Assembly (NCBI GenBank): GCA_965242865.1
Contig: CBDETK010000013.1
Coordinates: 1,984,001-2,048,000 of the forward strand
Direction: 5' to 3'
Length of the DNA: 64,000 bases
Source: Candidatus Latescibacterota bacterium
GTDB taxonomy: Bacteria; Latescibacterota; UBA2968; UBA8231
The notes beneath the pieces are model-generated. The model did not search any database and was not told where the DNA came from. It worked only from the letters and a program-made list of their open reading frames with translations. Of this stretch, positions 1,632 to 39,603 are shown one piece after another. The number at the start of each line of letters is the position of its first letter. Positions within the stretch are counted from its first letter, which is position 1. A program made the position numbers and the translations under genes.

Positions 1632-4000
1632 TAGGCCACGCTGATGATGCGGTGCCGGCTCGCGGCCCCGGCTTGGGCCTCCACCTCCACTCGGCACAGG
1701 TACGAACCGGGGGGCACTACGCGCTCGGCTTGGTCTTGGCCGCCCCACGTGTAGCGGTGGGATTGGTCGGGCTGGCGCTGGCCTTCGAGGGCGCGGACGA
1801 GCCGACCGTCGAGCGTGTAGATCTGCACTTGGACGGGCGCGTCCGTCTTTAGGATGTGGAAGCGGATTTCCGCTGCGTCGCCGATTCCGTCCCCATTGGG
1901 GCTGATGAACGCCTGCACCGAGAGGTTGGCGATTAGCTGATCGGTGTCCGGGACGCTGGGCAGATAGACGGTCGTGGCGGCGCGGCGCACCGGATCAACC
2001 GGCTGCCAGACCCCGAGCTGCCGCTCGTGGCCGACGAAGGCCCGGAAGAGGGCGGCGTTGCGCTCGACAACCGCGCTGAACGCCAGCGCGACTTCCTCGC
2101 GCCGCACCGTGCGATTGAGCTCCACGAGCAGGGAATCGCCGGCAACGCGCACTGCGGCCGGCTCGGCTGGGGCGTCCGCTATGGTCAGGACGAGGGCGGC
2201 GGGATCGACGGGCGAGGGCGTTTGCAGGAGGACGCGGTCAAACCCCGGGTTGAGCCGCTCTAAGGTCGGCGTGATGCGGAACGAGAACCGCTGCGCCACG
2301 CCCGCCTCGGCCGTGCGCGGCAACACCTCGCCGGTGACCTCGGCGAGGAAGGCGTCGGTAAATTCGATTTCCAAGGCGCGCACGGTCGGCGCCGTGGTCG
2401 GGCGGTCGGAGCTGAGGATGAGCTGAACTTGGACAAAGCGACGCGGGCTGGGGGACAGGAACTGCTCGCCGGAGTGCTGGTAAAAGTTGCTCCACTCGCT
2501 CCAGTCCGCGCCAATGCCGATGGTGCTCTGGGTTTCGCCCCGCAGTGCCTTGGGCATCTGGTCGTACTGCTCGGCCGTTACTTCGGTGCCATCCTTGCGG
2601 AAGTAGCGAAAATTTTCTTGCAGCGCGTCGCCCGAGCGCGTCCTCGCCTGAATGCGCGCGCCCGGGGGCAAATCGGCTTCCCAGCGCAGGGATTTGATCA
2701 CCTTGGCCCGGTTGTCGCCGGCGATTTTCCCCAAGTCGATGAAGTCCGAATTCATTTCCACTTGGGCCACGTGGCCCACCGCAAACACCAGCGTCTCGAT
2801 CAAAAAGCCGCTCTGGAACTCAAAGCTGGACTGCGCTCCGCCGCCGCCGACCCATTCGGCCGCGATAAAGCGGACGGGGCGCGGCGCAAAAAGATACGTC
2901 AGTTGGCCGGGGAACTCGGTCGAGGACGCGAGCAAGGCCGCTGCGTCGCCGATGAAGAGTTGGTCGAAATCGACTTCGCCGGTCAGGGTGCGACGCCCAT
3001 TGGAAACGCTCAAGCTATGGGTGCGAATTTGCGGCAGATTGGAGCCGTAGGTCAGGGTGCGGAGGAGAAAGTCCGAAGTGCGCATCACGATCCGGTCCAC
3101 CCAAAACAGCGCCCCCAAGTCCCAGTCCCAAGCGATGGGATCTTGACCGCGCTCCCGCCGTGCGCCCCAATCGGTATTGGCGTTGCCGTCGGCCATGTTG
3201 AAGGCAAATCCCCGGCCCGCGCGCTCCTGAATGGTGCCGCCGCGCGCCAAGGTCTGCAAGGCGACATTTTCGCCGATCGTATGCACTTCTACCTCGGCTA
3301 GGGCGGCGTCCGGCGTCTTGGCATCTACCAAAATCCTAATGTATTGCAGCAGATCATAGGTGGCGTCCGCAACGTCCTCCTCGCGGGTTTCCCACATCCG
3401 CTTGGCCTCCCGCACCAGCGGCTTGACATCGTAGGTCACCACGGTCTCGTCAATGGGCTTGGTCGTGCCGCCTATTAGGTGAAAAGAGAATATGTCTTGG
3501 CGCGTCACGCGGCGGCCCTCAGAGCCGAAAACGCGGAATTCGCGGAAGGGCCGCGCCCCCTCTTGATCCGGGAAGATGAGGCGAATCTCCGTCACCAGTA
3601 CGGCCCGGCCTAGGTTGATCTCGATCCACCAGTCGTCTAAGGGGGCGTCCGGGTCGGGTTGCCAGAAGGTGTGGGCGCGGCCGTCGATAGCCCGGCCGGC
3701 CGTTGCGAGGTTGGAGCCGGCCTTCCACGCGCCTCCGCGCCGCTCTTGGCCGCTCACCAGCTTGTGGGTGAACTCGCCGGCGTTGGCCGCGGCGTTGTGC
3801 CGGCCCTTGAACTCGACCGGGGTCACCGACCCGTCCGGGGAAAACGCGAGCGTGCCGGCCGGAAAGGTCCACTGCTGCCACTCGGCTTTGCGGTCCACTC
3901 GGTACACTGCTAGATCGGCCCGCTGGGTCTGGGCGTATGCCGCCAGCACCAAGGCCGCTAAACCCAAGGCCGCAAATAGGAGGAACGCACCGCGCTGCAT
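1628..4000 (-). CDS. secreted discoidin-like protein with a C-terminal FlgD-Ig/T9SS-like sorting domain
   Basis: Signal peptide; AIDGRAHTFW...WIEINLG discoidin-like segment; C-terminal ISPNGDGIGD...IYTLDGRLVR...WGG...VPPGSY...ISVAY. Confidence 0.75.
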   Translation of the reverse strand: MQRGAFLLFAALGLAALVLAAYAQTQRADLAVYRVDRKAEWQQWTFPAGTLAFSPDGSVTPVEFKGRHNAAANAGEFTHKLVSGQERRGGAWKAGSNLATAGRAIDGRAHTFWQPDPDAPLDDWWIEINLGRAVLVTEIRLIFPDQEGARPFREFRVFGSEGRRVTRQDIFSFHLIGGTTKPIDETVVTYDVKPLVREAKRMWETREEDVADATYDLLQYIRILVDAKTPDAALAEVEVHTIGENVALQTLARGGTIQERAGRGFAFNMADGNANTDWGARRERGQDPIAWDWDLGALFWVDRIVMRTSDFLLRTLTYGSNLPQIRTHSLSVSNGRRTLTGEVDFDQLFIGDAAALLASSTEFPGQLTYLFAPRPVRFIAAEWVGGGGAQSSFEFQSGFLIETLVFAVGHVAQVEMNSDFIDLGKIAGDNRAKVIKSLRWEADLPPGARIQARTRSGDALQENFRYFRKDGTEVTAEQYDQMPKALRGETQSTIGIGADWSEWSNFYQHSGEQFLSPSPRRFVQVQLILSSDRPTTAPTVRALEIEFTDAFLAEVTGEVLPRTAEAGVAQRFSFRITPTLERLNPGFDRVLLQTPSPVDPAALVLTIADAPAEPAAVRVAGDSLLVELNRTVRREEVALAFSAVVERNAALFRAFVGHERQLGVWQPVDPVRRAATTVYLPSVPDTDQLIANLSVQAFISPNGDGIGDAAEIRFHILKTDAPVQVQIYTLDGRLVRALEGQRQPDQSHRYTWGGQDQAERVVPPGSYLCRVEVEAQAGAASRHRIISVAY

Positions 4001-4014
4001 GATCTACTCCTTTT

Positions 4015-5964
4015 TTAGTACGCAACGGCCACCGCGCCGAGGCGCGTGAAACGCTCGCGCTCGGCGTCGGCCGTCACCTCGGCGAGGTACAGCCCCACGG
4101 GAACCGGGGTGCCGCGGTCGTCGCGGCCGTCCCAGTCCCAAACAAAAGAGCCGCTGCCCCGCGCACCGGCAAACAAGGTGCGCACCCGCTGGCCGCCGAT
4201 CGAGAAAATCCGCACGGTTAGCTGGACGGGCTGCTGGAGCTGGACCAAGGTGCAGGAAATGCGGACGCGCTCGTTGACCCCATCGCCATTGGGCGTCACC
4301 GTGGCCGGCTGCACCGCAAAAAACGGGAGCAGATTGCGCACCGAAGCGGCCGTGGTCAACACGCGTAGGTCGTTGGTCAGGACCGCGGGGTTGGCGTCCC
4401 CGGGCAGGACCTGCTGCGGGGCCTCGTCGCTTTGGGTGTCGAAGACTCGGGCGCGAAAGAACGTAGATTGGACGAAGACTTCGGCACTGAAAACCACGCG
4501 CAAGGCACTCGGGGATTGATGGGTCAGCCGTTGACTGGGGAAGAATAGCTTGAGGCTCCGCTCGCCCTCGACGACGCTGTCGGGCGCGGTCGCAACCGGC
4601 GGGTCGCCCGCGAACAGCTCCTCAAATCGCGGCCTAGCCGGCGTGAAAATCTCCAAGGCATCAAAGCCCACGTCCGTCTCGTTTATGTCGGCGCGGATGT
4701 CGTAGGCAAAGGTCGAGAGCGCGCCGGCCGGCACTCGGGGCTTATTGCCCGAAGGGCGGGGGGTTTCCAGCGCGGAGATTTCTCCGATTAGCTGCTGGGC
4801 CAACGGCGGGATGGAGTGCTCAACCGCCAGCGAGTTGACCCGGATGCCGTCGAGGATGGAGTGGCTGGTGAGGACGATTTCGAGCTGGAAGAAGCGACGC
4901 GGACTCGGCAGCTCAATCCGCTGGCCGGACTCCACGAAGGGGGGCGACCACTCGCTCCAGTTGACGGGGTCGTCTTCAACCGGGCCGCGCACGTTCAGGC
5001 CCAGCCGGCCGTAATCGCCTTCCGAGACTTCCCGCACATCGCCGGTGAAAACATTGACGATTTCGTAGAAGACCTGTGGGGTATCGTCGCGGCCCGTGCG
5101 CATGCGAATGGCGACCCGCGCATCGGCCAAGGGCTCGACGTCGATGCGGCCCTCTTCTTGGCGCAAGGGCTCGGCCTGCCACAACAGGCGGCTCAAGTTG
5201 GCCACTTCGCCCAAGTCAATGATCTTGGACCGATAGCGGCCCTCCGGGGGAAAGCCCGCTCCGTACACCTCAAACTCGGCGATCTCAAAGGGATTGGTCG
5301 AAGTGACGTTGAGCTGGATGTAGCGGACGAATTGCAAGGGGAAGGGGATTTGCGCCACGCTTTCCGTGGTGAAATCCACTTGGGTCAGCAGGTTGTACAC
5401 CGGCAGGTTTTCCGGCGTGAAGCGCACGCCGTCGCTGACCTGAATCTTGTAGCCGCGGATGAAGTCGTCGTCAAAGGGCCGCCCGCGGCTGTCAGCCCCG
5501 GCTGGGCGCGGGAAAAACGAGATGCGGTTGACCGGCAAGCGCGTGCCCAAGTCAAAGAAAAAGGCCCGGCCCGCTTGCAGCACCCCAAATTCCTTGAAGC
5601 GGTTTTCGCTGGAGGTCTGCACGTCGCCATCGACGAGCGGGGCATTGGTCTGCTTGAAGGGCACGTTGTCCCACACCCGCGCCTCGGCCGCCTCTTCGAC
5701 GAAATCCAAGGGAAAGCCCTCGGTCCATCTCAACTGCCGGACGATGTTGTCGTTGGGATTAAAACCCACCAATTGAATGGCCCCGGCCGCGTCGAAGCGG
5801 ATGGCCGTGGAGTTTAGCTCGTCGTCCTGCCAAGAGCGGCCCGCACCGCCCAATTCCCACAGCCGCACCTCGCCCGCCGCGACCATGGCCAACCACGCGA
5901 CTCCCACTAGCGCCTTAGCAGCACAAACCAGCAATTTGCACGCAGACAAAAGCAATTCCCTCAC
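4015..5964 (-). CDS. secreted protein with a C-terminal FlgD-Ig/T9SS-like sorting domain (paralog of 1628-4000 and 11806-13893)
   Basis: Signal peptide; SKIIDLG, RTGRDDTP and WSEWS motifs; VTPNGDGVNE...WDGRDDRG...VPVGLY...VAVAY. Confidence 0.75.
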   Translation of the reverse strand: MRELLLSACKLLVCAAKALVGVAWLAMVAAGEVRLWELGGAGRSWQDDELNSTAIRFDAAGAIQLVGFNPNDNIVRQLRWTEGFPLDFVEEAAEARVWDNVPFKQTNAPLVDGDVQTSSENRFKEFGVLQAGRAFFFDLGTRLPVNRISFFPRPAGADSRGRPFDDDFIRGYKIQVSDGVRFTPENLPVYNLLTQVDFTTESVAQIPFPLQFVRYIQLNVTSTNPFEIAEFEVYGAGFPPEGRYRSKIIDLGEVANLSRLLWQAEPLRQEEGRIDVEPLADARVAIRMRTGRDDTPQVFYEIVNVFTGDVREVSEGDYGRLGLNVRGPVEDDPVNWSEWSPPFVESGQRIELPSPRRFFQLEIVLTSHSILDGIRVNSLAVEHSIPPLAQQLIGEISALETPRPSGNKPRVPAGALSTFAYDIRADINETDVGFDALEIFTPARPRFEELFAGDPPVATAPDSVVEGERSLKLFFPSQRLTHQSPSALRVVFSAEVFVQSTFFRARVFDTQSDEAPQQVLPGDANPAVLTNDLRVLTTAASVRNLLPFFAVQPATVTPNGDGVNERVRISCTLVQLQQPVQLTVRIFSIGGQRVRTLFAGARGSGSFVWDWDGRDDRGTPVPVGLYLAEVTADAERERFTRLGAVAVAY

Positions 5965-24283: not shown

Positions 24284-24338
24284 GTAGTTCGAGGCGAAGC
24301 TGGCCCCGAAGTATATAGAAAGGGCTTGATCCGAAAGG

Positions 24339-25040
24339 CTAGCTGATACTGCTCAGGGCGGCGGCGAAGGAAAGCCAAATAATCATTATGAGACCAATCC
24401 CAACGTAGGCTTTGCTGCGATCAAACTGCCCCACAATAGACAGACCGAGACCAGTGACCACAATGCTCCAAACGACAAAGGGATCAATGAGGGACAATAA
24501 GTGCCCACTGAAGCTTCGGAGAGCCTCTTCGGAGAGGAACACCCCCAAGCCTATTTGCACTAGCGGTGTCTCTGTGGCCAATATTAGCAATGTCTTGATA
24601 ATCTGTTGGGGAATAGCGATCAACCCCGCATAGACTACTATGGTTAGGACTTGGCCGTAGGAGAGCAGGCCGCCTAGTAATTTGCCCACCAGTAGGCAAA
24701 GCGCAGAAAAAATAAAAACAAAAGTGAAAAGCACGATAGGTGTAACGATCAGAGTACTAACCCGCATGATGCCTTGGGTTTGGTATTGCTCCACGATCTT
24801 GCGCTCTTCGGCGGACATACCCTGCATCCGTTGCTGCATCCGTTCTTGGTTGAATTCAGTCGTAAAGGGCAGGATAAGTACCGCGGCAATCGTGGCAACT
24901 GCGACGTTCAGAATGGCAGGTACAAGCCAGTCGGCAGCACTGCGCTCGCGGGCGAGATCTTCAAAGGTCTCTCTCGGCGCGTAGAAGAGGCGAATCATGC
25001 GGTTGATAAGGCCGATTTCAGCCTGAGATGTGGGTTCCAT
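24339..25040 (-). CDS. Yip1-domain membrane protein
   Basis: LFYAPRETFEDL, about five TM segments, IDPFVVW..VV.GLGL; AAGGAGG RBS. Confidence 0.75.
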   Translation of the reverse strand: MEPTSQAEIGLINRMIRLFYAPRETFEDLARERSAADWLVPAILNVAVATIAAVLILPFTTEFNQERMQQRMQGMSAEERKIVEQYQTQGIMRVSTLIVTPIVLFTFVFIFSALCLLVGKLLGGLLSYGQVLTIVVYAGLIAIPQQIIKTLLILATETPLVQIGLGVFLSEEALRSFSGHLLSLIDPFVVWSIVVTGLGLSIVGQFDRSKAYVGIGLIMIIWLSFAAALSSIS

Positions 25041-25132
25041 GAAACCTCCTTCTTATGAAAAGAGATGGATTTATATCTATAACATCGTGTTTACTAAGAA
25101 CGTGTTTGATATATAGCTAGCAGATGAACCGA

Positions 25133-25933
25133 TTAGAGCGGCGTTGGAATAAAGGCCGATAGTTCCAGAGCCAAAACCGACATATTGCGTAGAGCATGAT
25201 ACATAATAGAAGGGTAAAGAGAGCGCGTTCCCTGATACAAAAAAAACGAAAGACTCTGTGACATAAACGTAATGATAAATTCCCTTAGATGTTCTCCTGA
25301 AAACGGAGAGTAATGGTGATAGCTGAAGATAAAAGCGGTAATAGTGAAGCCGAGAACGAATCCCAATCGATTCCTTAAAGCAGGGAAAATCAGACCGGTA
25401 AAATATGCCTCCTCTATAATAGGGGCAATCAGTAAAGCACGAACTGAATGTGGAATGATAAGGAGAAATATAGTACGAAATTCGTCCCAGCCGGCTTCCT
25501 CAACCCAAGGTATTAGAATAGGGTTGGGGCTTATTAAGTGGATATCAATTCCCCGGAGCTTCATGTAAAGGAAAAAGACCAATATACTTACTCCGGATAT
25601 TAACAATAAAAAAATAAACGTTAAAACTAATTTTTTTGATTCCCTGGGAATTTGGAGGGACAATCCCAATGTTTGGGTGTTTAGAGCCTGTTTTTCTATC
25701 TTGGAAAATGCCACGACAATTAAAATAAGTAAGGCATAAGGAATAGTACATAATGATATGAAAAGGTAGTCGCTCAAAGCGAATAGATTAAGTATAGTAT
25801 CGACAGTATAGCGAAAGAAAAAGAACATAAAAATGGCGAGTAGAAAGGTAGAAAATATTCTACATCGTATATTTTCAAACTTTCTGGTAAATACGGGATG
25901 AATGTATTGGTCCATTGTGTGGATCTTTTTCAC
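25133..25933 (-). CDS. CPBP (Abi/CAAX) intramembrane glutamic endopeptidase, possible immunity protein
   Basis: APIIEEAYFTG (EExxx), FSYHH, and HALRN motifs; polytopic. Confidence 0.85.
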   Translation of the reverse strand: MKKIHTMDQYIHPVFTRKFENIRCRIFSTFLLAIFMFFFFRYTVDTILNLFALSDYLFISLCTIPYALLILIVVAFSKIEKQALNTQTLGLSLQIPRESKKLVLTFIFLLLISGVSILVFFLYMKLRGIDIHLISPNPILIPWVEEAGWDEFRTIFLLIIPHSVRALLIAPIIEEAYFTGLIFPALRNRLGFVLGFTITAFIFSYHHYSPFSGEHLREFIITFMSQSLSFFLYQGTRSLYPSIMYHALRNMSVLALELSAFIPTPL

Positions 25934-25961
25934 GAGTACCCCTGCTTATTCCATTAGTTGT

Positions 25962-26020
25962 TGGTGAATCTTTTGAGCTACCAGCCTCGACAAGACGACT
26001 GGTAGCTCATCAATTCACCA
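25962..26020 (-). terminator. stem-loop downstream of the precursor gene (terminator or mRNA stabiliser)
   Basis: TGAGCTACCAG (25974-84) / CTGGTAGCTCA (25999-26009) perfect 11-bp stem, extended by TGGTGAAT/ATTCACCA; no U-tract on the minus strand. Confidence 0.6.
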
Positions 26021-26086
26021 TGTAGAGGTTGTGGGTTTCATCTAGGTTGGCTTCTTACAAACTTTGCTCGTTGTTTTTCCGTCTTC

Positions 26087-26359
26087 TTACGGATTGCGAG
26101 CGTACGATGCTTCTCGGTTTTGTCTTGAGGATTCTAGGTTCCCGTAAAGGGCCATCGCAGCAGCAGTGATGGCGGCGTCAGCCGCTAACGCAATGCCTAT
26201 CAGTGCCCAAGGAAGTGCTCCGCCCTTGATATCCTGAGCCTCAGAAGGCGTAATAGGCTTTGAAACGATCTCACTGTTGCTGGGTGCGATACTATAGGCG
26301 CACAAGCCCAAGGCTGTCGCCAGAGCTGTTACACCTTTAGTTTTGATAAGTTTAGTCAT
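26087..26359 (-). CDS. putative bacteriocin/RiPP precursor (Sec-like signal, double-glycine leader, 43-aa core)
   Basis: AAGGAG RBS; ITPSEAQDIKGG matches the LSxxELxxIxGG leader consensus; adjacent to a C39 peptidase; core ALPWALIGIALAADAAITAAAMALYGNLESSRQNREASYARNP. Confidence 0.8.
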   Translation of the reverse strand: MTKLIKTKGVTALATALGLCAYSIAPSNSEIVSKPITPSEAQDIKGGALPWALIGIALAADAAITAAAMALYGNLESSRQNREASYARNP

Positions 26360-26417
26360 GATGTTCTCCTTTCTTTAGGAAGAAGATGACAACCCTTACC
26401 TCCACATGGTGAATATT

Positions 26418-26963
26418 TTATTTTTTTGTCAATATCAAAGTCTCTCCTTTCCATATACGATTGAATGCCCCTTTTCCAATTCTGAGCCTGCCGATGGCTG
26501 GATCCCGCAAGATGACCTCACCGTGTTCGTTGATCTGGTCTAATACCGCAAAGTGGCCATCCTCAACAAAGACTACCGCAGGAAGCGGTTTGCTCTGTAG
26601 GTCATCTATATTTAGCCTCCAAGTTTCAGCATGTACTCCTTGACTTTCAGCGTATTCCATCAACTCGAATAGGGAAGAACCTGTCTCGTCTAATTTAATC
26701 ATGTCTTCAATATCTGTAAGCTCGCGGTTTATACCTAGGCTATCCAAGACCATTTTAAGAGCTACAGGACCACAATTCATCTTACGTGTTTGTAGAATGA
26801 CTCCTTCTGTTCCCTTGTATTCTGCACCTTTCAACCATGCCGCCAAGTTACGGTATATGATTTCACTCGTAATGGATCCGGCGACTAATTGCAAGGTAGC
26901 AGCAAAAAAAATGACTAATACTATTGCTGCTCCAATCGTTAATTTACTTTTCCAAGATGTCAT
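26418..26963 (-). CDS. stand-alone C39-family cysteine peptidase with an N-terminal signal or anchor
   Basis: ILQTRKMNCGPVAL (Gln...Cys), GHFAVL (His), RDPAIG (Asp), F...WKG; no ABC domain. Confidence 0.9.
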   Translation of the reverse strand: MTSWKSKLTIGAAIVLVIFFAATLQLVAGSITSEIIYRNLAAWLKGAEYKGTEGVILQTRKMNCGPVALKMVLDSLGINRELTDIEDMIKLDETGSSLFELMEYAESQGVHAETWRLNIDDLQSKPLPAVVFVEDGHFAVLDQINEHGEVILRDPAIGRLRIGKGAFNRIWKGETLILTKK

Positions 26964-26991
26964 AATTGAAGGTATCTTTTGTGATAGTACA

Positions 26992-29505
26992 CTATAGGGC
27001 TGGTTCTTGAACAGCCTTTATTTTTTTTTCGACTCGGTCAGCGTAGCTATACATATCTATTTCGACGAAAATTTTTGCCGCCATCGTCCACAAGGCGACA
27101 GCTTTTGCTTTTGACTCTTTTTCGGCAGCCACATCTCCCATACCTGTATAGGCAAGTCCCCGTCCCAGTTCGTCTCCGATCCTTTTGCATATAGACAAGG
27201 CTCTACTGTAACAAGATTCGGCTTCACTCCACTGTCCTCTAAGCTGATGTATCTCGCCCAGACTGGAAAGCCCGTAGGCGGTGCCCTTTTCGTCATTCTC
27301 GGCTTCGTATATCCCCAGTGCAGTCTTCTGCTCTTGGTGCGCGTCTTCATATTGTCCGCATTGGATATATACGAGACTTAAAGTAGTTCGGGCTGCTGCA
27401 ATAGTTTGCTGATTAGGCGAGTCTTGAGTGAGACGTAGGTAATTGCATAAGAATTCCTTGGCTTTATCAAATTTTTTACTATGAGCGTACAATTTTCCAA
27501 GCGATAAATAGCACTCAGTCACATCGGACGACATACCTATACGTTCAAATAGACTTATAGAGTGATGCAGGTAGGATTCTGCCAGAGGAAAATCTCCACG
27601 ATAGAAATGTACATTCGCCAGTACCTTATATGAGTACGCTTTTCCCTTTTCATCCGCCAAATTTTGATTAGCCTCTAAGGCAGCTTTGCCGTATTCTAGT
27701 GCTTTTTCCATATTTCCCATTAGAAGGTGTATAGAAGAAGACAATCCATAATGCAATGCCAATCCCCCTTTTCTATCCATCTTTTTATCTATGTCAATAG
27801 CCTGTTCCAGTAAAGTATGTGCTTCGTGGATACGGCCTTGAATTTTTCTTAAATTTGCAAGTGAATTGTACTGGTTAGCAATTCCCTCGGAGTCTCCGAT
27901 TTCTTTGTAAATAGCTAAAGATTCCTCGTAAAGTTTCTCTGCTGAATCCAAGTCGTCTTTTAGAAGATGCACAGTACCCAAGTTGCTGGTAACCAAGGCA
28001 TAATCTTCTCGACAATTTACTTTTTTGTGAAGACTCTGTCCTTTAATATAAAAATCCGCAGCTTCGGCGAGATTTCCTTGTAGCTGCGCGATAAATCCTT
28101 TGCAGGTATATCCTACGGCTAGCTTCCTTGTACTTTCATCATCCTCAGCTTGTGAAAAAATTGATATGGCCTCATCATAACATTGATCTGCCCTGTCTAA
28201 TTCGCCTTTCAGCTCATAAACTTTGCCTTCGGAGATCAGTATGTTAGCCAATCCTGTAGCTGTACTACCCCGAAGACGATTCGCTTCTTTTGCCAATTCG
28301 ATTTGAGATAAGGCGGATTCTAGACGACCGTTCTGCCAGTGCTCGTCAGCAGAGGCTAAAATGATTTCCCATTCTTCGGGATCACCTTGCTGGTCAACTC
28401 GTTCAAATACCTCGCTTTCAGCAGGGCTAAATTTGCAATGAGTAGGAAGCTCGGTATCTAGGTTGAGCTGTGGGAGCACATCCAAGATCTCTTGATACTC
28501 TTTTCTGTCTGCTGCAGAGATGGTTCGGTAGATATGGTCAAATTCAATCAGACTGTCTATAACTGACTCCTCTGGAAGAAAAGGATTAGGCCACAGATGC
28601 GCCCACCAGAAGTGGATCAGACGCACCAAGGGATCGCTATGTTTGCGGGCTATGTACTCAACCGCGGCGTACCGCTTTGTGCTCTCGGCTTTTGCCTTCT
28701 CAGGATCGGAGAAATTATGATGATGGTACAGGTGATAAGAAGAGGCCTGGACACTGATAAATTGTCCACCCGCCGCCCCTAGGCGGTAGCCAAGTTCCCA
28801 CCCTTCACAGAAAGGTATGGCATCATCGAATCCCCCTACTTTTTCTAGCAGCTTTAACGGTATGGCCATATTGTGAGGGTATAATCCAATCCAGCCTAGG
28901 GCCGGTTCTGCGATGGTTTCGTAAAGATCGTGAAATTCCCTCTGCATAGTACGGACTTCTTCAAACGGATAGCCTCCTTCCACTGCTTTTTCGGTAATAC
29001 TCTCGAACTCATTGCACACCATACTCTCTGTGACAATCATCTTATCTCGGTGTAGCTCTAAGCACCGACGCAGTGAATAAGGCAGTGAGGTATCGGCGAG
29101 TGAACCTGTCTGAGGATTTTGGAAATACTCTAGGTCGGGAAGGACATATTGATAGCCACATAATACTGACTTCTGACCATTCTCTTTATAGGCTTCTAAG
29201 TAGCACTGGAGTAGTTCCGGGGCTGGTAATGCATCTCCATCCAAGAAAACGACCAACGAGCCTAGTGCCCGTTCAACCCCTCTATTCCGTGCTCGGCATC
29301 GGCCCTGATTCACTGCAAAACACTCAACTTTGAGGTTATGCATCCTTCGCGATTCGAGCATTGCTCCGGTCCCGTCTGTAGAACCGTCATCAACTACTAC
29401 TATTTCAAAACGATCGCTTGGAATATTCTGATTTTCTAAGCCACTTAACACGAGACGGAGACGGTCTTTCTGGTTATACGTGGCTATGATTACACTTATA
29501 TCCAT
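26992..29505 (-). CDS. GT2 glycosyltransferase fused to a long TPR domain
   Basis: ISVIIATYN, VVDDGSTDGT, ARNRG, FLDGD (DxD), GGFD; about 450 aa of TPR-like repeats; TAATG coupling to the upstream gene gives ATG 29505. Confidence 0.85.
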   Translation of the reverse strand: MDISVIIATYNQKDRLRLVLSGLENQNIPSDRFEIVVVDDGSTDGTGAMLESRRMHNLKVECFAVNQGRCRARNRGVERALGSLVVFLDGDALPAPELLQCYLEAYKENGQKSVLCGYQYVLPDLEYFQNPQTGSLADTSLPYSLRRCLELHRDKMIVTESMVCNEFESITEKAVEGGYPFEEVRTMQREFHDLYETIAEPALGWIGLYPHNMAIPLKLLEKVGGFDDAIPFCEGWELGYRLGAAGGQFISVQASSYHLYHHHNFSDPEKAKAESTKRYAAVEYIARKHSDPLVRLIHFWWAHLWPNPFLPEESVIDSLIEFDHIYRTISAADRKEYQEILDVLPQLNLDTELPTHCKFSPAESEVFERVDQQGDPEEWEIILASADEHWQNGRLESALSQIELAKEANRLRGSTATGLANILISEGKVYELKGELDRADQCYDEAISIFSQAEDDESTRKLAVGYTCKGFIAQLQGNLAEAADFYIKGQSLHKKVNCREDYALVTSNLGTVHLLKDDLDSAEKLYEESLAIYKEIGDSEGIANQYNSLANLRKIQGRIHEAHTLLEQAIDIDKKMDRKGGLALHYGLSSSIHLLMGNMEKALEYGKAALEANQNLADEKGKAYSYKVLANVHFYRGDFPLAESYLHHSISLFERIGMSSDVTECYLSLGKLYAHSKKFDKAKEFLCNYLRLTQDSPNQQTIAAARTTLSLVYIQCGQYEDAHQEQKTALGIYEAENDEKGTAYGLSSLGEIHQLRGQWSEAESCYSRALSICKRIGDELGRGLAYTGMGDVAAEKESKAKAVALWTMAAKIFVEIDMYSYADRVEKKIKAVQEPAL

Positions 29506-31973
29506 TATAGAAACTCCACTCTCAGGTGATATTGGCACTTCAAATTTGAGATATGCTCCCATCCATCCTTACCTTCTATTAGGAAATAAGGTAGCGTCTT
29601 AGCAGAGTTGGAAAACATGAGTCGTTGGTTATCTAAGTGGCCAAAATAGTAGGAATCAAAAGATCGAGTATTTCGCTTTATGTATGTTTTTAGCTTAGGA
29701 TCTTCGACATTGTATTCGGTTATAGAAACTTCGCCGATAGCCATACTGAGGAATTCGACGGGTATCCAGCCCGCTTCTTCTAGATAAATTTCGGCCCACG
29801 TGTGGCCTACTATAGGCTCGTCTATACTTCTGTATTCGTACACCTGTTCAGAAATTGGGAATCCCAACAAGGTTCCACATCTCTCGCGAGCAGGAATACC
29901 GACCATTCTACATAGAGCTATAAAGGTTCTGGCAAAGTGAATACAATTGCCACCGATGTTATTCAGCAAAACAGCCGAACTATCAGCTAGACCCATCGCA
30001 GGTATCTTAGTCTTTCTGAATTTTTTAGTTCTGATTAACTTGCTGTAGAAGGCCCAGGCCAGTTCTTTTTTGTCGCAGGGCGCGGATGCTTCGAGTATCT
30101 CGGAAAGCACTTGCTCCAGTTCTGGCAGTTTGCCTAAAATTTCGTCGGTATATAAATATTTCGATCTCTCCCAGTCCGAAAGGATGTACTCGCCTCTACC
30201 TTTAGCATTATACTCACTGACCTCAAGTTCACAAGTATATGAAAAATTTGCCGAATTTGAGTTTACAGTGAAAGGATATGCATAGAAGAAGCCAAACTTG
30301 CTGCGTAAACAGTGTCTCATATTCTCTGGAAAACAGTCGATTAGACTAACTGCCTTTTGTTCTTTTGTCTCCAAAGGGTATGGCATAAAAACCCTTAACT
30401 GTTGATCTGGTTTTTCAGTAAAATCTATGTCGTAAGAGTAGGTTATTCTGTAACGTTGGGTATGATATTTTGAACGTACGTTGCCTATTTCGTCTATATC
30501 GAAAAAGACACGTCGTCTTTGATCACAGGCCTTGTACTCAGCCTCAAAAAATCGAGCTTCTCTTTCGTAGAGCCAATTCCAAGAGTCTATTTTGTCGAAG
30601 AAGTACTGATTGCCCTGTCGCCAGTGAGGTATCCCTTTTTTAATACCTTGCCGTAGCATTTTATGTAGTGATTCCATTGATAGAGTGGAAGGAGTAGTGC
30701 CATCGAGTTGCTGTAAGAATTCGTTTTCACTTACTAGAAATTTAGGATCGAAACTGAGTGCCGTGTACCGGTTCGTAAAATAATCATCTACCCAGTCTGC
30801 AACGACATCTCTTGCACACCATCGATTCAATAAATTGGCAAGAGCTTCCAATTGAATCTCCATCTTATCCCAGACACCGAGAGTTTTCCTTAGTATTTGT
30901 GTAATATTGTGATAACTAAATCTATCTGGATCTATTTTTAGGCCCAAATTAACCTCTTCGAGTCTATCGAGATGAAGCTCCTGATCTAAAGTGGTTGCTA
31001 TACCGATAGGCAAAACTCCATGAAGCAAAGCACTATATAGGGTCTCTATATCTAAATCTCCAACTATTACATGTATCCTTTCCCATGGCGGCTCTCTATA
31101 GATTCCATTCTCTACATGGCTGTCAGGCCGCTTTACTCCTCTGGTAGATTCTACTAGTAAACGATAAGGGAGTTCCACTCCAGATGCATCCTGTCTCAGT
31201 ATATCTTCTTTTAGGAGATTTTGGGGATCTTTTATATAGATGACAGGGAATGATCCATCCCGTTTGCGAAGCACCTTTCGTTTGCCTCTCTTTTTATCGG
31301 TAGTCGGCAAGAGGGGCCCTATGTAGTGGAACCCGTCAGCACCGAAATCTAGCGTGGGATATAGTTCGGGTATATCGGCGATTAGATAGTACTTATTCTT
31401 CTTCTTGATTTCGCCAGCTTTGTTTTTTAAGTACTCTGCAAACGTGTCTCTTGATGATAGAACAGATAGAGTCTGAAGAGGGATACGATAGCCTAGGCGA
31501 TCGTATCCTTGAATTACTTCAGCTTCGTCAATACCTTCCAAGTGTGCTGCAATTGAAGCAGTTGGTTTCAAGGAATGTATAATTAGATCAGGCTTATACT
31601 CCTCAATCAAAGACCGTTCGGATTCTACGCAAGAGTCGATCCATTCCGTATCACATGCTCTATAGTCCAATAGCTCAATCTGGTCTCTGTGAATCTCTAG
31701 CGGCAGCGTTTTAACACTGCATATTTCTTCTCCTTTTTGGAAACATTGCTCCGCCCAAGGTCCATCTCCTGCCAGCCGAACCTCATAGCCTCGGCGACGT
31801 AATTGTCGGGCAATCTCACAAGCTCGCCTAGTATGAACAGCACTACAACCATGGAACAGGACCATAATAGACAATGCGCTACGGTCTAATATACTGGTTT
31901 CCGATGCTCTTCTGAGGCTACTGCTCCACCACAATAACCTTGACACTAATTTTTCTCTGATAGATGTACGCAA
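29505..31973 (-). CDS. GT-B-fold glycosyltransferase-like domain fused to a transglutaminase-like domain
   Basis: N-terminal HTRRACEIARQLRRRGYEV, YKPDLII, YIGPL, ALLHGV..I....DQ; C-terminal GNCIHFARTFIALCRMVGIPAR...GHTWAEIYLEEAGWIPVE; AGAGG RBS before TTG. Confidence 0.75.
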   Translation of the reverse strand: MRTSIREKLVSRLLWWSSSLRRASETSILDRSALSIMVLFHGCSAVHTRRACEIARQLRRRGYEVRLAGDGPWAEQCFQKGEEICSVKTLPLEIHRDQIELLDYRACDTEWIDSCVESERSLIEEYKPDLIIHSLKPTASIAAHLEGIDEAEVIQGYDRLGYRIPLQTLSVLSSRDTFAEYLKNKAGEIKKKNKYYLIADIPELYPTLDFGADGFHYIGPLLPTTDKKRGKRKVLRKRDGSFPVIYIKDPQNLLKEDILRQDASGVELPYRLLVESTRGVKRPDSHVENGIYREPPWERIHVIVGDLDIETLYSALLHGVLPIGIATTLDQELHLDRLEEVNLGLKIDPDRFSYHNITQILRKTLGVWDKMEIQLEALANLLNRWCARDVVADWVDDYFTNRYTALSFDPKFLVSENEFLQQLDGTTPSTLSMESLHKMLRQGIKKGIPHWRQGNQYFFDKIDSWNWLYEREARFFEAEYKACDQRRRVFFDIDEIGNVRSKYHTQRYRITYSYDIDFTEKPDQQLRVFMPYPLETKEQKAVSLIDCFPENMRHCLRSKFGFFYAYPFTVNSNSANFSYTCELEVSEYNAKGRGEYILSDWERSKYLYTDEILGKLPELEQVLSEILEASAPCDKKELAWAFYSKLIRTKKFRKTKIPAMGLADSSAVLLNNIGGNCIHFARTFIALCRMVGIPARERCGTLLGFPISEQVYEYRSIDEPIVGHTWAEIYLEEAGWIPVEFLSMAIGEVSITEYNVEDPKLKTYIKRNTRSFDSYYFGHLDNQRLMFSNSAKTLPYFLIEGKDGWEHISNLKCQYHLRVEFL

Positions 31974-32097
31974 TTGAAATATACCTCTGGTTGAATGATC
32001 TGGCTAGAAACGGCAGCAACAGCCGGCAATTCTGTTTGCCCCCATGTTTTAGAACCTGCTGATGGTGAAGCACGGCTGAGGCTTCGGCGGGAATAAA

Positions 32098-32114
32098 AGC
32101 GAAAAGCGTGCCGA
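32098..32114 (-). promoter_or_regulatory. sigma-54 (-24/-12) promoter candidate for the precursor operon
   Basis: Minus strand TCGGCACGCTTTTCGCT has GG-N10-GC with a GGCACG core, about 125 nt upstream of the first gene. Confidence 0.55.
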
Positions 32115-32153
32115 AAAGCACGCCAGATAAACTGAGCCATCGGCTGATATTCT

Positions 32154-32180
32154 CTAAGTCCTTGAAATCAGGCGAGTTAG
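32154..32180. promoter_or_regulatory. IHF-like site / imperfect palindrome
   Basis: CTAAGTCCTTGAAATCAGGCGAGTTAG; TAAGTCCTTGAAA is one mismatch from TAANNNNTTGATW. Confidence 0.45.
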
Positions 32181-32308
32181 CTAATTCCGATTTTTTATTG
32201 CCGCCGCTGCCGCCCAACCAGTCAACACGTCAAAGCGTATCCCCTCTGAAACACTACCGTTTCCAAGCGTTACAAAAAGTCGCCGCCTTGGCCCCGGTCG
32301 ATAGTTGA

Positions 32309-36298: not shown

Positions 36299-36316
36299 TG
36301 ATTTAGGATTGCTATA
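36299..36316. repeat. isolated MITE-type terminal repeat abutting the R-M start codon
   Basis: TGATTTAGGATTGCTATA matches the ends of the element at 43957-44075. Confidence 0.6.
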
Positions 36317-39300
36317 TGGCGACAAGACAGGTCCTTAGAAGCCATCTCCGGGCGTATTACGACAGCTTGAAAACTACCTTTGCGACCAATCAGGCGACTG
36401 AGCACAGCTACCGCTCGGCCCTTGAGACCCTGGTTCAAGGGTTGGACAGCCAACAAGTTCGTGCTCTCAATGAGCCTAAGCGCATCGCTTGCGGTGCGCC
36501 CGATTTTATCGTTGAGCGGGGAGGGGTACCAATCGGCCATATCGAATGCAAGGATATCGGCGAACCCTTAGATCGCATCGAGAAAGACCCGCAACTGAAA
36601 CGCTACCGCGAGAGTCTGCCGAATCTGATCCTGACCGATCATTTAGAATTTCGCTGGTATGCAGAAGGGGAGTTGCGTCTAACAGCGCGGCTTGCACGCA
36701 TCGCCAGTCCAGATCGGATCGCCGTTGACGAGGCCGGAGCTTCCCAAGTTGCCGAATTGTTCACCGCGTTCTTTGCTGCTGACCTGCCATCCATCGGCAG
36801 ACCGCGTGAACTAGCCGAGCGCATGGCGGGCAAGGCGCGGCTACTCCGCGACAGCATTGAGCGCATCTTGGCGCAAGAAGCTGACAGCCCTCTGCACGAC
36901 TTGTTCGCCGGCTACCGCGAGGTGCTGATCGCCGACTTATCAGAACCCGACTTTGCCGACTTGCAGGCGCAGACAGCCGCTTACGGCCTGTTTGCAGCGC
37001 GGTGCCGACACGAACCTGTCAATGGACCTTTTACCCGACAGTCCGCCGCGTTTGCCGAGACCACGCCCTTTTTGCGAGATGTCTTTGGGCGGATTGCCGG
37101 GCCGGGGATGGACGAGCGGATCGCTTGGATCGTCGATGATCTGGCGTACCTGTTAGACCGAGCGGATATGGCGTCTATTCTGTCCGAGTTCGGCAAGAAG
37201 ACCCGGGGAGAAGACCCGGTAGTGCATTTCTACGAGGATTTCTTGGCGGCTTACGATCCGCACCTGCGTGAGATGCGTGGCGTGTACTATACGCCCGAAC
37301 CCGTGGTGTCTTATATCGTGCGGAGCGTGGACCACTTGTTGCGTACTCGGTTTGGCTTAGCCGATGGGCTGGCCGACACGGCGACGGTCGCGTCCCAAAA
37401 TGGGGGATCACCCCATCCACGAGTACTAATTCTCGACCCGGCGGCGGGCACGGGAACCTTCTTGCGCGAAGTGGTCTCCACCATCCGCAAGACCATTGAA
37501 GCGAAGGGATTAGGCGGTGCTTGGCCGAGCTACGTACATGAGCATCTTTTGCCGCGTCTGTTTGGGTTTGAGTTGCTGATGGCCCCTTATTCGATCTGCC
37601 ATCTGAAACTCGCGCTTGAAATTGGCGGGATAGACCGCGGCTTTGCCATGCCCGCCAGCGAGCGGCTCAATGTCTTCCTCACCAACGCCTTAGAAAAGGC
37701 GCACGAAGGGCCTATTCCCTCGCTATTCGTTCACGAAATAGCCCGCGAAGCGACCGGCGCGGATGAGATCAAGCGCGAGAAGCCAGTGATGGTGATCTTG
37801 GGCAACCCTCCCTATTCTGGACACTCGGCTAATAAAGGCGAGTGGATCAACAAATTGTTGAAAGGACGAGATGGAGAGCAAACAACAGGCAACTATTTTG
37901 AGGTGGACGGACAACCACTTGGCGAAAAAAATTCCAAGTGGCTAAACGACGACTATGTAAAATTCATCCGCTTTGCCCAATGGCGTATTGAGCGCACTGG
38001 CGAAGGCGTGCTGGGCTTCGTGACCAACCACAGCTATTTGGACAACCGGACCTTTCGCGGGATGCGCCGTAGCTTGATGAAAACCTTTGATGAGATCTAT
38101 TTGCTCGACCTGCACGGCAACGTGCGGCAAAGAGAGCATACCCCTGATGGCGGCAAAGATGAAAACGTGTTCGACATTCAGCAGGGCGTTTCTATTAGTC
38201 TATTTGTCAAATACAAAGATGTGGGTAGCGAGCCGTGTCGAATGTTTCATGCCGACTTGTGGGGAGAATGTGAGAACGGACCAGCCGGTAAATATGGCTG
38301 GCTCGTCGCCAACGGTGTCGATACCACCAAATGGAAAGAACTGTCGCCAAAATCGCCAGACTATATATTTGTGCCGCGAGACGAGGATCTGTTAGAAGAA
38401 TACAAAACAGGCTGGAAAGTCACGGACATTTTCCCAGACAATTCGACAGGTATTGTAAGCAAAAGAGATAAAATTGCTTTTCACTTTGAACAAAACGACT
38501 TGTACAAAGTGTTAAATGATTTCCACACTCTCGACGAGCATATTCTTAAAGAAAACTATAACTTCAGAGAAAGCAGAGATGGCAAGATAGGCTTTGTTAA
38601 GGAACATATTCAAAGTTATGGAATTAAGGATGAGTACGTAAAGCTTTGTCTATATAGGCCCTTTGATTATAGATGGACATACTACACGGATAAATCAAAA
38701 GGGTTTTTGGGATGGCCTGTGTATGAAGTCATGCGACATCTACTAGCCGGATCGAATCTTGGATTATGCATTGGCCGGGCCGGTCAAGTTACGGGTTCGG
38801 ACTTCTGGGATGTCGCGTTCGTCTCAAAATTTCCATCGGACTTTAATTTATTTCGGCGTGGTGGAAATTGTCTCTTTCCGCTCTATATATATCCAGCCGA
38901 AAAAGAAAAGAAATTCGGCAGTACCCGAACTCCAAACCTCAATCCCAAGTTTATCGAGGCAGTTGAAAAAGCCACTGACCTCAACTTCATCCCCGACGGC
39001 CCCGGCGACCTCAAAACTACCTTCGGCCCAGAGAATGTCTTCCACTACCTCTACGCCGTGCTCCACAGCCCAGAATACCGCCGCCGCTACGCCGACTTTC
39101 TCAAGTCAGATTTTCCCCGCATTCCCGTGACCAACTGCGCGGCACTGTTTGAGTCGCTCGCCGCGCTTGGGAAGCGGCTGACGGCCCTGCACTTAATGGA
39201 GCTCGATGAGGGCGAGGCCCCCGTCTTTCCGGTCGCTGGCGACAATCGAGTAGAAAAGGTGAGCTACGCGCCGTCACAGAAGCGGGTGTGGATCAACGGC

Positions 39301-39603
39301 AAGCAGTATTTTGACGGCATCGCGCAGCAGACTTGGGAATTCACCATTGGTGGCTACCAGCCGGCCGAGAAGTGGCTCAAGAACCGCAAAAATCGCACCC
39401 TCTCATACGACGACATTGGCCATTACTGCCGCCTCTGCGCGGCCTTGGCCGAGACGCCGCGCATCATGGCCAAAATTGACAAAACAATCGACGCCTATGG
39501 CGGTTGGCCGCTAGTTCAGGACGATTACCTGCGTGGCCTCTATCAGACGTTGAGCGAAGAATGGACCTCTCCAGAAGATGAGGAGGCTTGGTGTGCCCTT
39601 TGA
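36316..39603 (+). CDS. single-chain Type IIG/ISP-like restriction-modification enzyme (nuclease, m6A MTase, TRD) with an extra antitoxin-like C-terminal tail
   Basis: N-terminal APDF...IECK (PD-ExK), GVYYTP, ILDPAAGTGTF, GNPPY, YRPFD, FPRIP, GGWP; no helicase motifs. Confidence 0.9.
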   Translation: MATRQVLRSHLRAYYDSLKTTFATNQATEHSYRSALETLVQGLDSQQVRALNEPKRIACGAPDFIVERGGVPIGHIECKDIGEPLDRIEKDPQLKRYRESLPNLILTDHLEFRWYAEGELRLTARLARIASPDRIAVDEAGASQVAELFTAFFAADLPSIGRPRELAERMAGKARLLRDSIERILAQEADSPLHDLFAGYREVLIADLSEPDFADLQAQTAAYGLFAARCRHEPVNGPFTRQSAAFAETTPFLRDVFGRIAGPGMDERIAWIVDDLAYLLDRADMASILSEFGKKTRGEDPVVHFYEDFLAAYDPHLREMRGVYYTPEPVVSYIVRSVDHLLRTRFGLADGLADTATVASQNGGSPHPRVLILDPAAGTGTFLREVVSTIRKTIEAKGLGGAWPSYVHEHLLPRLFGFELLMAPYSICHLKLALEIGGIDRGFAMPASERLNVFLTNALEKAHEGPIPSLFVHEIAREATGADEIKREKPVMVILGNPPYSGHSANKGEWINKLLKGRDGEQTTGNYFEVDGQPLGEKNSKWLNDDYVKFIRFAQWRIERTGEGVLGFVTNHSYLDNRTFRGMRRSLMKTFDEIYLLDLHGNVRQREHTPDGGKDENVFDIQQGVSISLFVKYKDVGSEPCRMFHADLWGECENGPAGKYGWLVANGVDTTKWKELSPKSPDYIFVPRDEDLLEEYKTGWKVTDIFPDNSTGIVSKRDKIAFHFEQNDLYKVLNDFHTLDEHILKENYNFRESRDGKIGFVKEHIQSYGIKDEYVKLCLYRPFDYRWTYYTDKSKGFLGWPVYEVMRHLLAGSNLGLCIGRAGQVTGSDFWDVAFVSKFPSDFNLFRRGGNCLFPLYIYPAEKEKKFGSTRTPNLNPKFIEAVEKATDLNFIPDGPGDLKTTFGPENVFHYLYAVLHSPEYRRRYADFLKSDFPRIPVTNCAALFESLAALGKRLTALHLMELDEGEAPVFPVAGDNRVEKVSYAPSQKRVWINGKQYFDGIAQQTWEFTIGGYQPAEKWLKNRKNRTLSYDDIGHYCRLCAALAETPRIMAKIDKTIDAYGGWPLVQDDYLRGLYQTLSEEWTSPEDEEAWCAL

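Follow-up and report, generated by a model that had tools for sequence, protein, structure and literature searches.

A six-gene AT-rich island with a putative exported peptide, a C39 peptidase and two glycosyltransferase-like proteins in a Candidatus Latescibacterota genome

Genes between the helicase and topoisomerase IV genes

There are six co-oriented genes in an AT-rich island of a Candidatus Latescibacterota genome (GenBank assembly GCA_965242865.1; 6.0 Mb in 13 contigs). They lie on the minus strand at 24339-31973 of the stretch of DNA that was analyzed, here called the window, which is 64,000 nucleotides (nt) long and covers positions 1,984,001 to 2,048,000 of contig CBDETK010000013.1. 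In gene order, these encode a fusion of a GT1-like glycosyltransferase (GT) and a transglutaminase-like (TGase-like) domain, a GT2 enzyme with a TPR array (GT2-TPR), a C39 peptidase, a peptide of 90 amino acids (aa), a CPBP protein, and a Yip1 protein. The fusion protein, GT2, and the TPR array are referred to below as the trio. All six open reading frames (ORFs) were confirmed at their places (Table 1). An earlier interpretation by a model that ran no database searches, the sequence-only reading, had proposed a glycosylated, ribosomally made and post-translationally modified peptide (RiPP) system for this region. Its domain calls were borne out by Pfam matches for the TGase, GT2 and TPR, C39, CPBP, and Yip1 domains.

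The position and composition of the island were likewise confirmed. On one side it is flanked by a DEAD-box RNA helicase gene and on the other by a topoisomerase IV gene pair, of which the A subunit scored 879.7 bits (cut-off 644) and the type IIA topoisomerase B subunit gave a match under the curated cut-offs. The guanine-plus-cytosine (GC) content, taken over 500-nt intervals, is 0.36-0.49 across 25000-32000 and 0.52 at the end of the Yip1 gene (24500-24999), and the housekeeping flanks are at about 0.57-0.64. The first two genes are coupled as TAATG (TAA at 29507-29505, ATG at 29505-29503), as had been noticed from the sequence, and the later intergenic gaps are, in order, 28, 58, 153, and 92 nt. 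The fusion gene starts with TTG at 31973. A later start was rejected since the N-terminal 36 residues are conserved in paralogs. The sequence-only reading had placed the end of the system at 32180, which is 207 nt past this TTG and falls inside a non-conserved ORF of 99 aa (31918-32217, minus strand). This ORF has a signal-like stretch and overlaps the start of the fusion gene. It was considered as a conserved precursor and rejected, being broken or frame-shifted in the orthologous loci, and it is probably not a gene.

Table 1. Features of the island, numbered by their positions in the window
Feature	Position	Strand	Basis
GT1-like/TGase-like fusion, 822 aa	29505..31973	-	ORF; Transglut_core 4.4e-13; GT1 profile matches
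GT2-TPR, 837 aa; GT2 (GT-A) at ~1-346, TPR_12-type array at ~416-820	26992..29505	-	Glycos_transf_2 1e-24; TPR_12 4.8e-52
Stand-alone C39 cysteine peptidase, 181 aa	26418..26963	-	Peptidase_C39 1.8e-27
90-aa prepropeptide	26087..26359	-	ORF, ribosome-binding site, 13 homologs
Signal-like residues 1-23	26291-26359	-	Sequence pattern
Double-glycine-type leader, residues 24-47	26219-26290	-	Sequence pattern
43-aa putative core, residues 48-90	26090-26218; stop codon 26087-26089	-	Sequence pattern
Strong stem-loop without U tail, just past the peptide gene	25975..26008	-	Fold z-score -4.7
31-nt inverted repeat, downstream arm	26013..26043	.	81% complementary to upstream arm
31-nt inverted repeat, upstream arm, between the C39 stop and the peptide ribosome-binding site	26384..26414	.	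Recurs in orthologs
CPBP (Abi/Rce1-like) intramembrane glutamic protease, 266 aa	25133..25933	-	Rce1-like 6.2e-13
Yip1/YknW-family multi-pass membrane protein, 233 aa	24339..25040	-	Yip1 1.4e-17

Encoded proteins and RNA features

The peptide gene possesses a ribosome-binding site, AGGAG, 7 nt 5' of its start. The first 23 residues of the peptide resemble a Sec signal, with a basic start, a hydrophobic stretch, and A-Y-S, and the leader that follows ends in D-I-K-G-G. The remaining 43 residues had been described as an amphipathic core. They appear instead to be an Ala-rich hydrophobic helix (residues 48-72; Kyte-Doolittle of about 1.9 and a low hydrophobic moment) with a polar tail (residues 73-90), and the net charge of residues 48-90 is 0. 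The only Cys is C20, in the signal-like part, so that residues 48-90 are Cys-free. A lipoprotein reading of C20 was rejected, as the preceding residue is Leu and the homologs from loci without GT genes have no Cys there. No Pfam or NCBIfam family matched the peptide, and the ESM Atlas gave weak leads only, the best at 0.87 and a ‘putative bacteriocin’ cluster at 0.77.

Double-glycine leaders end in GG, GA, or GS and have conserved residues at about -4, -7/-8, and -12, which are read by C39 peptidases. In the window's peptide, the spacing of I36 (-12), E40 (-8), A41 (-7), I44 (-4), G46, and G47 fits this pattern. Fourteen peptides were aligned, that of the window and 13 homologs. M1, A12, P35, E40, A41, and G46 are invariant among them, and the mid-helix residue D61 is almost so. 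P35, E40, A41, and G46 all lie within 15 residues ahead of the cut site, and the -1 residue of this site is G, A, or S across the homologs. The earlier suggestion of a double-glycine precursor next to a C39 peptidase is thus upheld by both the leader spacing and the invariant G46.

The C39 protein, which has no ABC domains by Pfam, is the only C39 match in the assembly. When it was aligned to the peptidase domains of LahT150 and PCAT1 (6mpz, 7n87), Q58, C63, H137, and D153 were matched. A hydrophobic segment occurs only once in it, near the N-terminus (residues 4-33), and has Lys residues ahead of it; the N-termini of more distant homologs are still more basic. This arrangement predicts a catalytic domain on the periplasmic side of the membrane. 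Export of both C39 and the peptide, as proposed in the sequence-only reading, therefore stands as a prediction from the hydrophobic segment of the one and the signal-like N-terminus of the other. The six genes include no dedicated ATP-binding cassette (ABC) exporter. The absence of a peptidase-containing ABC transporter (PCAT) and of a thiol-disulfide oxidoreductase among them, and of Cys in the core, had also been reported correctly. The two membrane proteins that complete the island are a CPBP protein, in whose sequence the motifs EExxF, FxxxH, and HxxxN can be read, and a Yip1 protein, which scored 71.8 bits against YknW_fam, under the cut-off of 110.

Two RNA features surround the peptide gene. 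In the first, a stem-loop just past the gene, none of 200 shuffled sequences folded as well, and a stem of 13-15 bp occurs at the matching place in all five orthologous loci. Only one of 20 pairs in this hairpin showed a double change indicative of covariation, in an automatic alignment with two sequence groups out of register. The second is an inverted repeat that brackets the whole peptide ORF, with 340 nt between its arms, and its pairing recurs in five of five orthologs. Together, the stem-loop and the inverted repeat suggest a peptide transcript that is separately stabilized or processed.

The two large proteins of the trio are without any hydrophobic segment by hydropathy and are thus predicted to be cytoplasmic. 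The N-terminal half of the fusion protein is a GT1-like GT-B domain, for which the family profile matched YjiC at 1.1e-21 and OleD and CalG2 at about 1e-15; Pfam and NCBIfam alone gave only a weak GT-B signal. The C-terminal approximately 400 aa are transglutaminase-like, and the profile also matched the periplasmic domain of TgpA (6g49) at 3e-5. C677 and H724 are kept in 25 of 25 aligned sequences and position 740 is acidic (Glu here, Asp in some orthologs). A protein 100% identical to the 822-aa fusion is present in the protein collection, and the ESM Atlas held no usable match for it. At least 95% of 40 family members, the window's protein included, retain the GT2 motifs DDG, LDxDALP, EGW, and HLYHxH. 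A complex prediction for GT2-TPR with the prepropeptide scored 0.00 in two runs made without controls and is evidence neither way.

Gene sets in related genomes

The C39, peptide, and CPBP genes are adjacent in all eight loci that were examined, with CPBP after the peptide in each. Five of these loci also have the trio, namely the window, L033, L034, L035, and L118. In these five, which form an orthologous clade (56-100% identity), C39, peptide, and CPBP are directly downstream of the trio. The genes of the trio and C39 overlap in L035 by ORF coordinates, and in L118 there are 2 nt between the matches. Two genera, between which the proteins are 56-57% identical, have retained the same gene order, with Yip1 judged in the same-genus copies only. 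Yip1 is present in those three (window, L033, and L034), and the L035 and L118 contigs stop within the CPBP gene, so that Yip1 cannot be judged there. The closest public relative, labeled Candidatus Latescibacterota, has the same six genes, and its first protein is 89% identical to that of the window.

In sister species, the slot between the helicase and topoisomerase genes, which corresponds to 24300-32300 of the window, holds another AT-rich island of about 8 kb, a streptolysin-S-like thiazole/oxazole-modified microcin (TOMM) cluster. Of 30 other genomes of the genus, 21 have a SagD/YcaO gene at a distance of 5-8 kb from the helicase gene. None was found there in the three genomes that have the GT/C39 island; the remaining six genomes that lack a match are, for the most part, fragmented or more distant. 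The YcaO match of G133 and that of G137 each consist of two separate pieces. Four TOMM slots were read (L114, L115, L116, and L117) and contain SagC-like, SagB, SagD, ABC-2, CPBP, and ABC ATPase genes. The scan of L117 identified a SagC-like protein, two SagB-type dehydrogenases, SagD/YcaO (211.5 bits), an ABC-2 permease, a CPBP protein, an ABC ATPase, and a small ORF with a C-C-C run. It appears that the GT/C39 island and the TOMM island are alternative cargo of one peptide-toxin hot spot. This alternation provides the strongest contextual argument for regarding the window's island as a peptide-toxin or RiPP-like unit.

The trio has a wider distribution than the C39, peptide, and CPBP genes. 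The fusion protein was matched in 39 of 168 genomes of the phylum, nearly all of one family, with at most five matches per genome. A total of 48 trio loci were gathered, comprising 20 genome loci, 24 metagenome loci, and the four copies in the window's own genome. GT2 is directly downstream of the fusion gene in 41 of the 41 loci that extend far enough (18 genome loci, 19 metagenome loci, and the four own-genome copies). Five of these 41 duplicate others almost exactly, with an identity of at least 98%. The other seven loci are cut by contig ends. The TPR array follows GT2 in most loci, either as a fused domain or as a separate gene. By tblastn, the window's genome has the fusion and GT2 genes four times, with one copy split, and C39, peptide, and CPBP once. 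One further CPBP match there is very weak (E 6.7e-4). The three further fusion and GT2 pairs, one of them with the split fusion gene, are found outside the window at native GC (G000:C13:1592-5139, 3168585-3172107, and 379921-383522). Each has as neighbors small Cys-rich signal-bearing peptides, ABC-2 permeases, DUF1573 or FG-GAP/T9SS-tail proteins.

Small peptides are frequent companions of the trio. The screen of the 48 loci was directed at ORFs of 40-140 aa that had both a ribosome-binding site and an N-terminus resembling a signal, and hidden Markov model searches followed. In 38 loci, a small signal-like peptide of one of four families was identified; seven of the ten loci without one have less than 200 nt upstream or are short contigs. 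Family F1 (17 loci, 14 of them distinct) consists of acidic peptides of 70-83 aa with a P-x-P-E-type end, the last residue always Glu, and they are encoded directly upstream of the fusion gene. Family F2 (11 loci) comprises Cys-rich signal-bearing peptides 1-6 kb from the trio. Family F3 (five loci) is the window's double-glycine-leader peptide, downstream of the C39 gene that follows the trio. Family F4 (five loci) consists of anchored, Cys-rich peptides of 95-110 aa, which are adjacent to the trio in G0p2, G0p3, L047, and L136 and about 2.3 kb upstream in L044. F1, F2, and F4 had no Pfam family match.

Examples of F1 are found in L041 (8513-8758) and L133 (7629-7871). In L133, the peptide gene comes after genes for two sigma-54 activators that have Reg_prop/Y_Y_Y sensor domains. 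One F1-type locus was examined in full; besides the peptide and the trio, it encodes a response regulator and two sigma-54 activators with sensor propellers, and an unrelated phosphoenolpyruvate carboxylase gene comes next. Neither a protease nor an exporter is encoded in this locus. As it holds only regulators, peptide, and trio, the minimal unit would be a peptide with the trio.

A profile search among 1.84 billion representative proteins extended the family to 260 proteins at E <= 1e-30. Among the best 150 matches, only about ten are full-length fusions, and many proteins of approximately 700-750 aa share just the C-terminal 400 residues. Ten proteins of the wider family were scanned. One has GT2, TGase-like, and GT1 domains in a single chain of 1204 aa (P0070), two have GT2 and TGase-like domains, and one has a methyltransferase and a TGase-like domain. 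The fusion proteins with the TGase-like module in the representative library are P0070, P0073, P0080, and P0084. Such single-chain GT2/TGase-like/GT1 fusions tie the three activities to one pathway. The occurrence of the wider trio family beside small signal-bearing peptides favors a peptide-directed role.

Possible function of the island

The best explanation of the six genes, with a probability of roughly 0.4, is a horizontally acquired, AT-rich peptide-production island that joins two older modules. It would produce a bacteriocin-like exported peptide that is cleaved by C39 in the periplasm, with protection or processing by CPBP and Yip1 and with prior cytoplasmic tailoring by the trio. Sec would export the prepropeptide by means of residues 1-23, which resemble a signal. 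The membrane-anchored C39 would then recognize the leader I36-T-P-S-E-A-Q-D-I-K-G-G47 and cut after G47, as predicted from the leader pattern and the intact catalytic residues. The product would be a peptide of 43 residues, made up of a hydrophobic, Ala-rich helix, in which an Asp at mid-helix is conserved, and a short polar tail, and it may act in membranes like a class II bacteriocin. CPBP proteins are known as bacteriocin immunity proteins. By analogy with other bacteriocin loci, the CPBP protein, and probably Yip1, could protect the producer or finish processing. In the trio, the TPR array may hold the prepropeptide while the GT2 domain adds a sugar before export, and the TGase-like Cys-His-Glu domain may carry out a further acyl-transfer or hydrolytic step. 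Tailoring of the peptide by the trio before export is plausible. Glycosylation, cross-linking, or deamidation as the particular modification is pure conjecture. The sequence-only interpretation as a whole is thus retained for its genes, domains, leader, and predicted export of C39 and the peptide, and not for the amphipathic core.

Several observations weigh against such a role for the trio and against release of the peptide. The GT2-TPR protein had been likened to SunS, the sublancin transferase. It does possess a GT2 domain with DxD and a TPR array, but there is no glycocin transferase chain among its 58 sequence matches in the PDB (E <= 1e-3), a database that presumably contains SunS structures. 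The second GT, fused to the TGase-like domain, is as described in its domains, but its donor-binding loops are replaced in the window's clade. Throughout the family, the GT-B half lacks the canonical GT1 donor motif H-G-G...E. Opposite H-G-G-M-N-S-T-M-E of YjiC, the family consensus is G-i-l-G-i-G-t-i-y and the window's clade has G-D-L-D-I-E-T-L-Y, with D-Q-E kept. The Gly-rich loops C-G-S-S-G and G-I-V-G-I-G of the paralogs are K-D-P-Q-N-L and G-D-L-D-I-E in this clade, and the GT-B C-domain is the part most diverged from the paralogs (24% identity vs. 34-42% elsewhere). Because of the replaced loops, donor binding may be changed or lost, and the role of this half is perhaps binding rather than catalysis. 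With regard to release, the hydrophobic stretch of 25 residues might keep a Sec-exported peptide in the inner membrane of the producer, and no outer-membrane route is encoded among the genes of the island.

The association of the trio with peptides must also be viewed with caution. The F2 and F4 peptides are in many loci 1-6 kb from the trio and not adjacent to it. A quick IQ-TREE phylogeny with SH-aLRT support was made from 39 distinct fusion proteins, for which five duplicates were dropped and four loci with a match of 600 aa or less were left out. F3 and F4 each fall in one clade (support 100 each), F1 falls in one clade (support 92), and F2 is divided between two. The four families require three label changes on this tree, the minimum possible. 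The tree shows an association by clade; as kin share neighbors by descent, it does not show co-evolution or a functional tie.

The main alternative, somewhat less probable than the reading above, is that the peptide is exported unmodified by a plain C39-peptide-CPBP-Yip1 system that travels with a functionally separate trio having another substrate. In the genomes G111, G112, and G115 of a sister genus, the genes are in the order CPBP, C39, peptide, CPBP. They have native GC (0.55-0.64) and no GT genes in their vicinity, and the cut sites of their peptides read G-A or G-S. The family profile found no fusion protein in these assemblies, which are 94%, 84%, and 73% complete; it matched a TGase-core of 43-49 residues inside ORFs of about 1000 aa, or nothing. 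Because these three genomes have the peptide module without the fusion protein, the GTs appear to be dispensable for this peptide family as such. The GT homologs co-occur with the precursor and C39 in five of five orthologous loci, so that the sequence-only reading withstands its own refuting condition among orthologs, but neither C39 nor this peptide is present in any of the 36 paralogous trio loci of sufficient length. Co-location within one transferred island could alone explain the linkage in the five type-A loci. The window's clade of the fusion protein sits on a long stem branch of 1.39 changes per site, which fits a cassette captured from elsewhere, and its replaced donor loops agree with a trio that does not act on this peptide.

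Other evidence is against two functionally separate gene sets. The trio and C39 are 28 nt apart in the window and closer still or overlapping in the two orthologs described above, and the six-gene order has been kept between genera whose proteins are little more than half identical. All other clades of the trio also occur beside small signal-like peptides. Within the window's clade, the GT-B C-domain is still conserved, with 49% identity in deep pairs, similar to other regions. The peptides from GT-linked loci share a C-terminal N-P, which the three peptides from loci without GT genes do not have.

The genome G144 contains an intact CPBP gene whose product is 71% identical to that of the window, in a small low-GC patch (L083, 9000-12600) beside a truncated peptide-core gene. 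Neither C39 nor GT genes are near it in the 19.9-kb stretch examined. Its neighbors, outside the slot, are Yip1 and what we take from their sequences to be a membrane-fusion-like protein and an FtsX/MacB-like permease, a YknWXYZ-like set. This looks like the pattern of an orphan immunity gene, in a single case.

An unlikely explanation is that the peptide is no toxin and is instead a small membrane-anchored or sorted protein. The G-G, helix, and tail would then be a sorting signal that is cut by C39, CPBP, or both, and the 24-residue Ser/Thr/Pro-rich N-terminal piece would be the product, perhaps glycosylated. The part ahead of G-G is indeed the best conserved of the protein, and its arrangement of a motif, a helix, and a charged tail is similar to that of sorting signals. 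CPBP proteases sort in the Synerg-CTERM and JDVT-CTERM systems, and the window's CPBP protein matches MrtS and MrtJ, but only weakly (31.6 bits vs. a cut-off of 130 and 22.2 vs. 75). The peptide matches no CTERM-type NCBIfam model, and its conserved stretch fits the double-glycine spacing that C39 enzymes read. The nearly invariant Asp in mid-helix would be unusual for a mere anchor, and the alternative cargo of the slot is a toxin cluster. It is still less probable that a glycolipid or surface glycan is the product of the GT genes and is handled by the membrane proteins of the island, with the small ORF incidental or regulatory: AT-rich, GT-filled islands are typical of surface-glycan loci and the GT2 domain scores best against exopolysaccharide GT models (EpsD, 136.5 bits, far under its cut-off of 370), but genes for a flippase, a polymerase, the synthesis of sugar nucleotides, or a lipid carrier are missing from the island, a good ribosome-binding site precedes the peptide gene, whose leader-like pattern is conserved in 14 sequences, and the constant companion of the trio elsewhere is a small peptide and not glycan genes.

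The island can be compared to known systems. Glycocins, such as sublancin (SunS), glycocin F, enterocin F4-9, and pallidocin, have paired Cys, a glycosylation loop, a PCAT, and oxidoreductases. The island is like these in having a GT2 enzyme with helical repeats beside a double-glycine-leader peptide and C39 activity. In glycocin clusters, however, C39 heads an ABC exporter, whereas here it is a stand-alone exported enzyme. The island differs also in the Sec-type signal before the double-glycine leader and in its Cys-free core, which leaves no disulfide-stapled hairpin and no S-glycosylation site. It has no thiol-disulfide oxidoreductase and a second, GT1-like/TGase protein, and its GT2 has no detectable sequence relation to glycocin transferases. 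Thus, it does not appear to be a glycocin cluster. A class II bacteriocin system seems to match in part. Shared features are the GG-type leader, a C39 with an intact active site, a small hydrophobic core that looks unmodified, and a CPBP gene directly after the peptide. Unlike those systems, the island has no dedicated ABC exporter or accessory protein, Sec export and periplasmic cleavage (in a presumed diderm) are predicted, and two large cytoplasmic GT proteins are encoded in the same operon.

Soluble cytoplasmic GTs of the HMW1C/NGT type and TibC-type heptosyltransferases are known to modify signal-peptide-bearing substrates before export. These systems differ from the island in their large adhesin substrates and GT families, and they have no TGase-like domain or TPR array. 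The streptolysin-S-like TOMM clusters resemble the island in being AT-rich, in their small peptide and CPBP protein, and in their slot. They contain SagBCD heterocyclization enzymes and an ABC transporter and, unlike the island, no GTs or C39; the CPBP proteins of the two islands are 23% identical over 162 residues. Bufferins are described as RiPP precursors with Sec signal peptides that are modified before export (PMC11626156). They differ in their enzymes (MNIO and DUF2063 proteins, in place of GTs and TGase), in their Cys-rich copper-binding cores, and in having no C39 step. FapD is described as a C39 protease acting in the periplasm, of a class of C39 peptidases that awaits characterization (PMC5557850). 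Like FapD and FilB, the C39 of the island bears a signal or anchor and would act in the periplasm on a Sec-exported substrate (PMC5557850). Those enzymes serve amyloid or pilus secretion with outer-membrane channels, in contrast to the island's substrate with its canonical GG leader, and the island's C39 scores are under the curated NCBIfam cut-offs (FapD, 34.3 bits vs. 330; FilB, 31.1 vs. 475). No description of the trio or of this gene combination was found in a literature search at the level of titles and the first lines of abstracts.

A bolder and tentative proposal, which we regard as less likely than not, is that the trio represents an undescribed class of ribosomal-peptide tailoring enzymes, so far limited to a single family of sponge-associated Latescibacterota. 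At least four unrelated families of Sec-signal peptides would be glycosylated in the cytoplasm before Sec export, and the Cys-His-Asp/Glu domain might trim or cross-link them. In the window, the cassette would have been captured by a C39/double-glycine/CPBP bacteriocin module, and the island so combined would have displaced a streptolysin-S-like cluster at a hot spot for peptide toxins. If the trio does tailor peptides, it would be a new RiPP enzyme set, composed of a GT-A, a GT1-like/TGase fusion, and a TPR array. It would be the second example, after the bufferins, of RiPPs that use the general Sec pathway with no dedicated exporter, and a whole group of small signal-bearing peptides would be opened to genome mining. 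Since the peptide module is found both with the GT cassette and in its absence, the island provides a clean natural experiment. Sister species of a not-yet-culturable sponge symbiont lineage appear to have one or the other of two unrelated peptide-toxin clusters in a single slot. A periplasmic stand-alone C39 with a canonical GG-leader substrate could also be a tractable model for the exported C39 class.

The surroundings of the island were explored as well. PADLOC identified no defense family beyond generic TPR matches, and the plasmid collection had neither a DNA nor a protein match to the island. A tRNA scan found none in the window, which indicates that there is no tRNA-linked integration site, and no direct repeats flank the island beyond chance-like matches of 14-25 nt. 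Promoter and terminator scans were not above background (13 sites vs. 13.8 expected and 13 vs. 8.5 +/- 3.6 expected, respectively). At least half of the sampled words of the island are present in seven sequencing runs from two studies, one of which is labeled as a sponge metagenome; the run that holds them best may be the source sample itself. Elsewhere in the window, at 36316-39603 on the plus strand, there is a gene for a Type ISP restriction-modification-like protein of 1095 aa (N6_Mtase and Type_ISP_C, 3.7e-82), and the GC content is 0.42-0.48 at 38000-39000, within part of this gene. The relative L002 has another low-GC gene pair, beyond the topoisomerase genes (2937-5727), for a DNA methylase and a BanI-like restriction enzyme.

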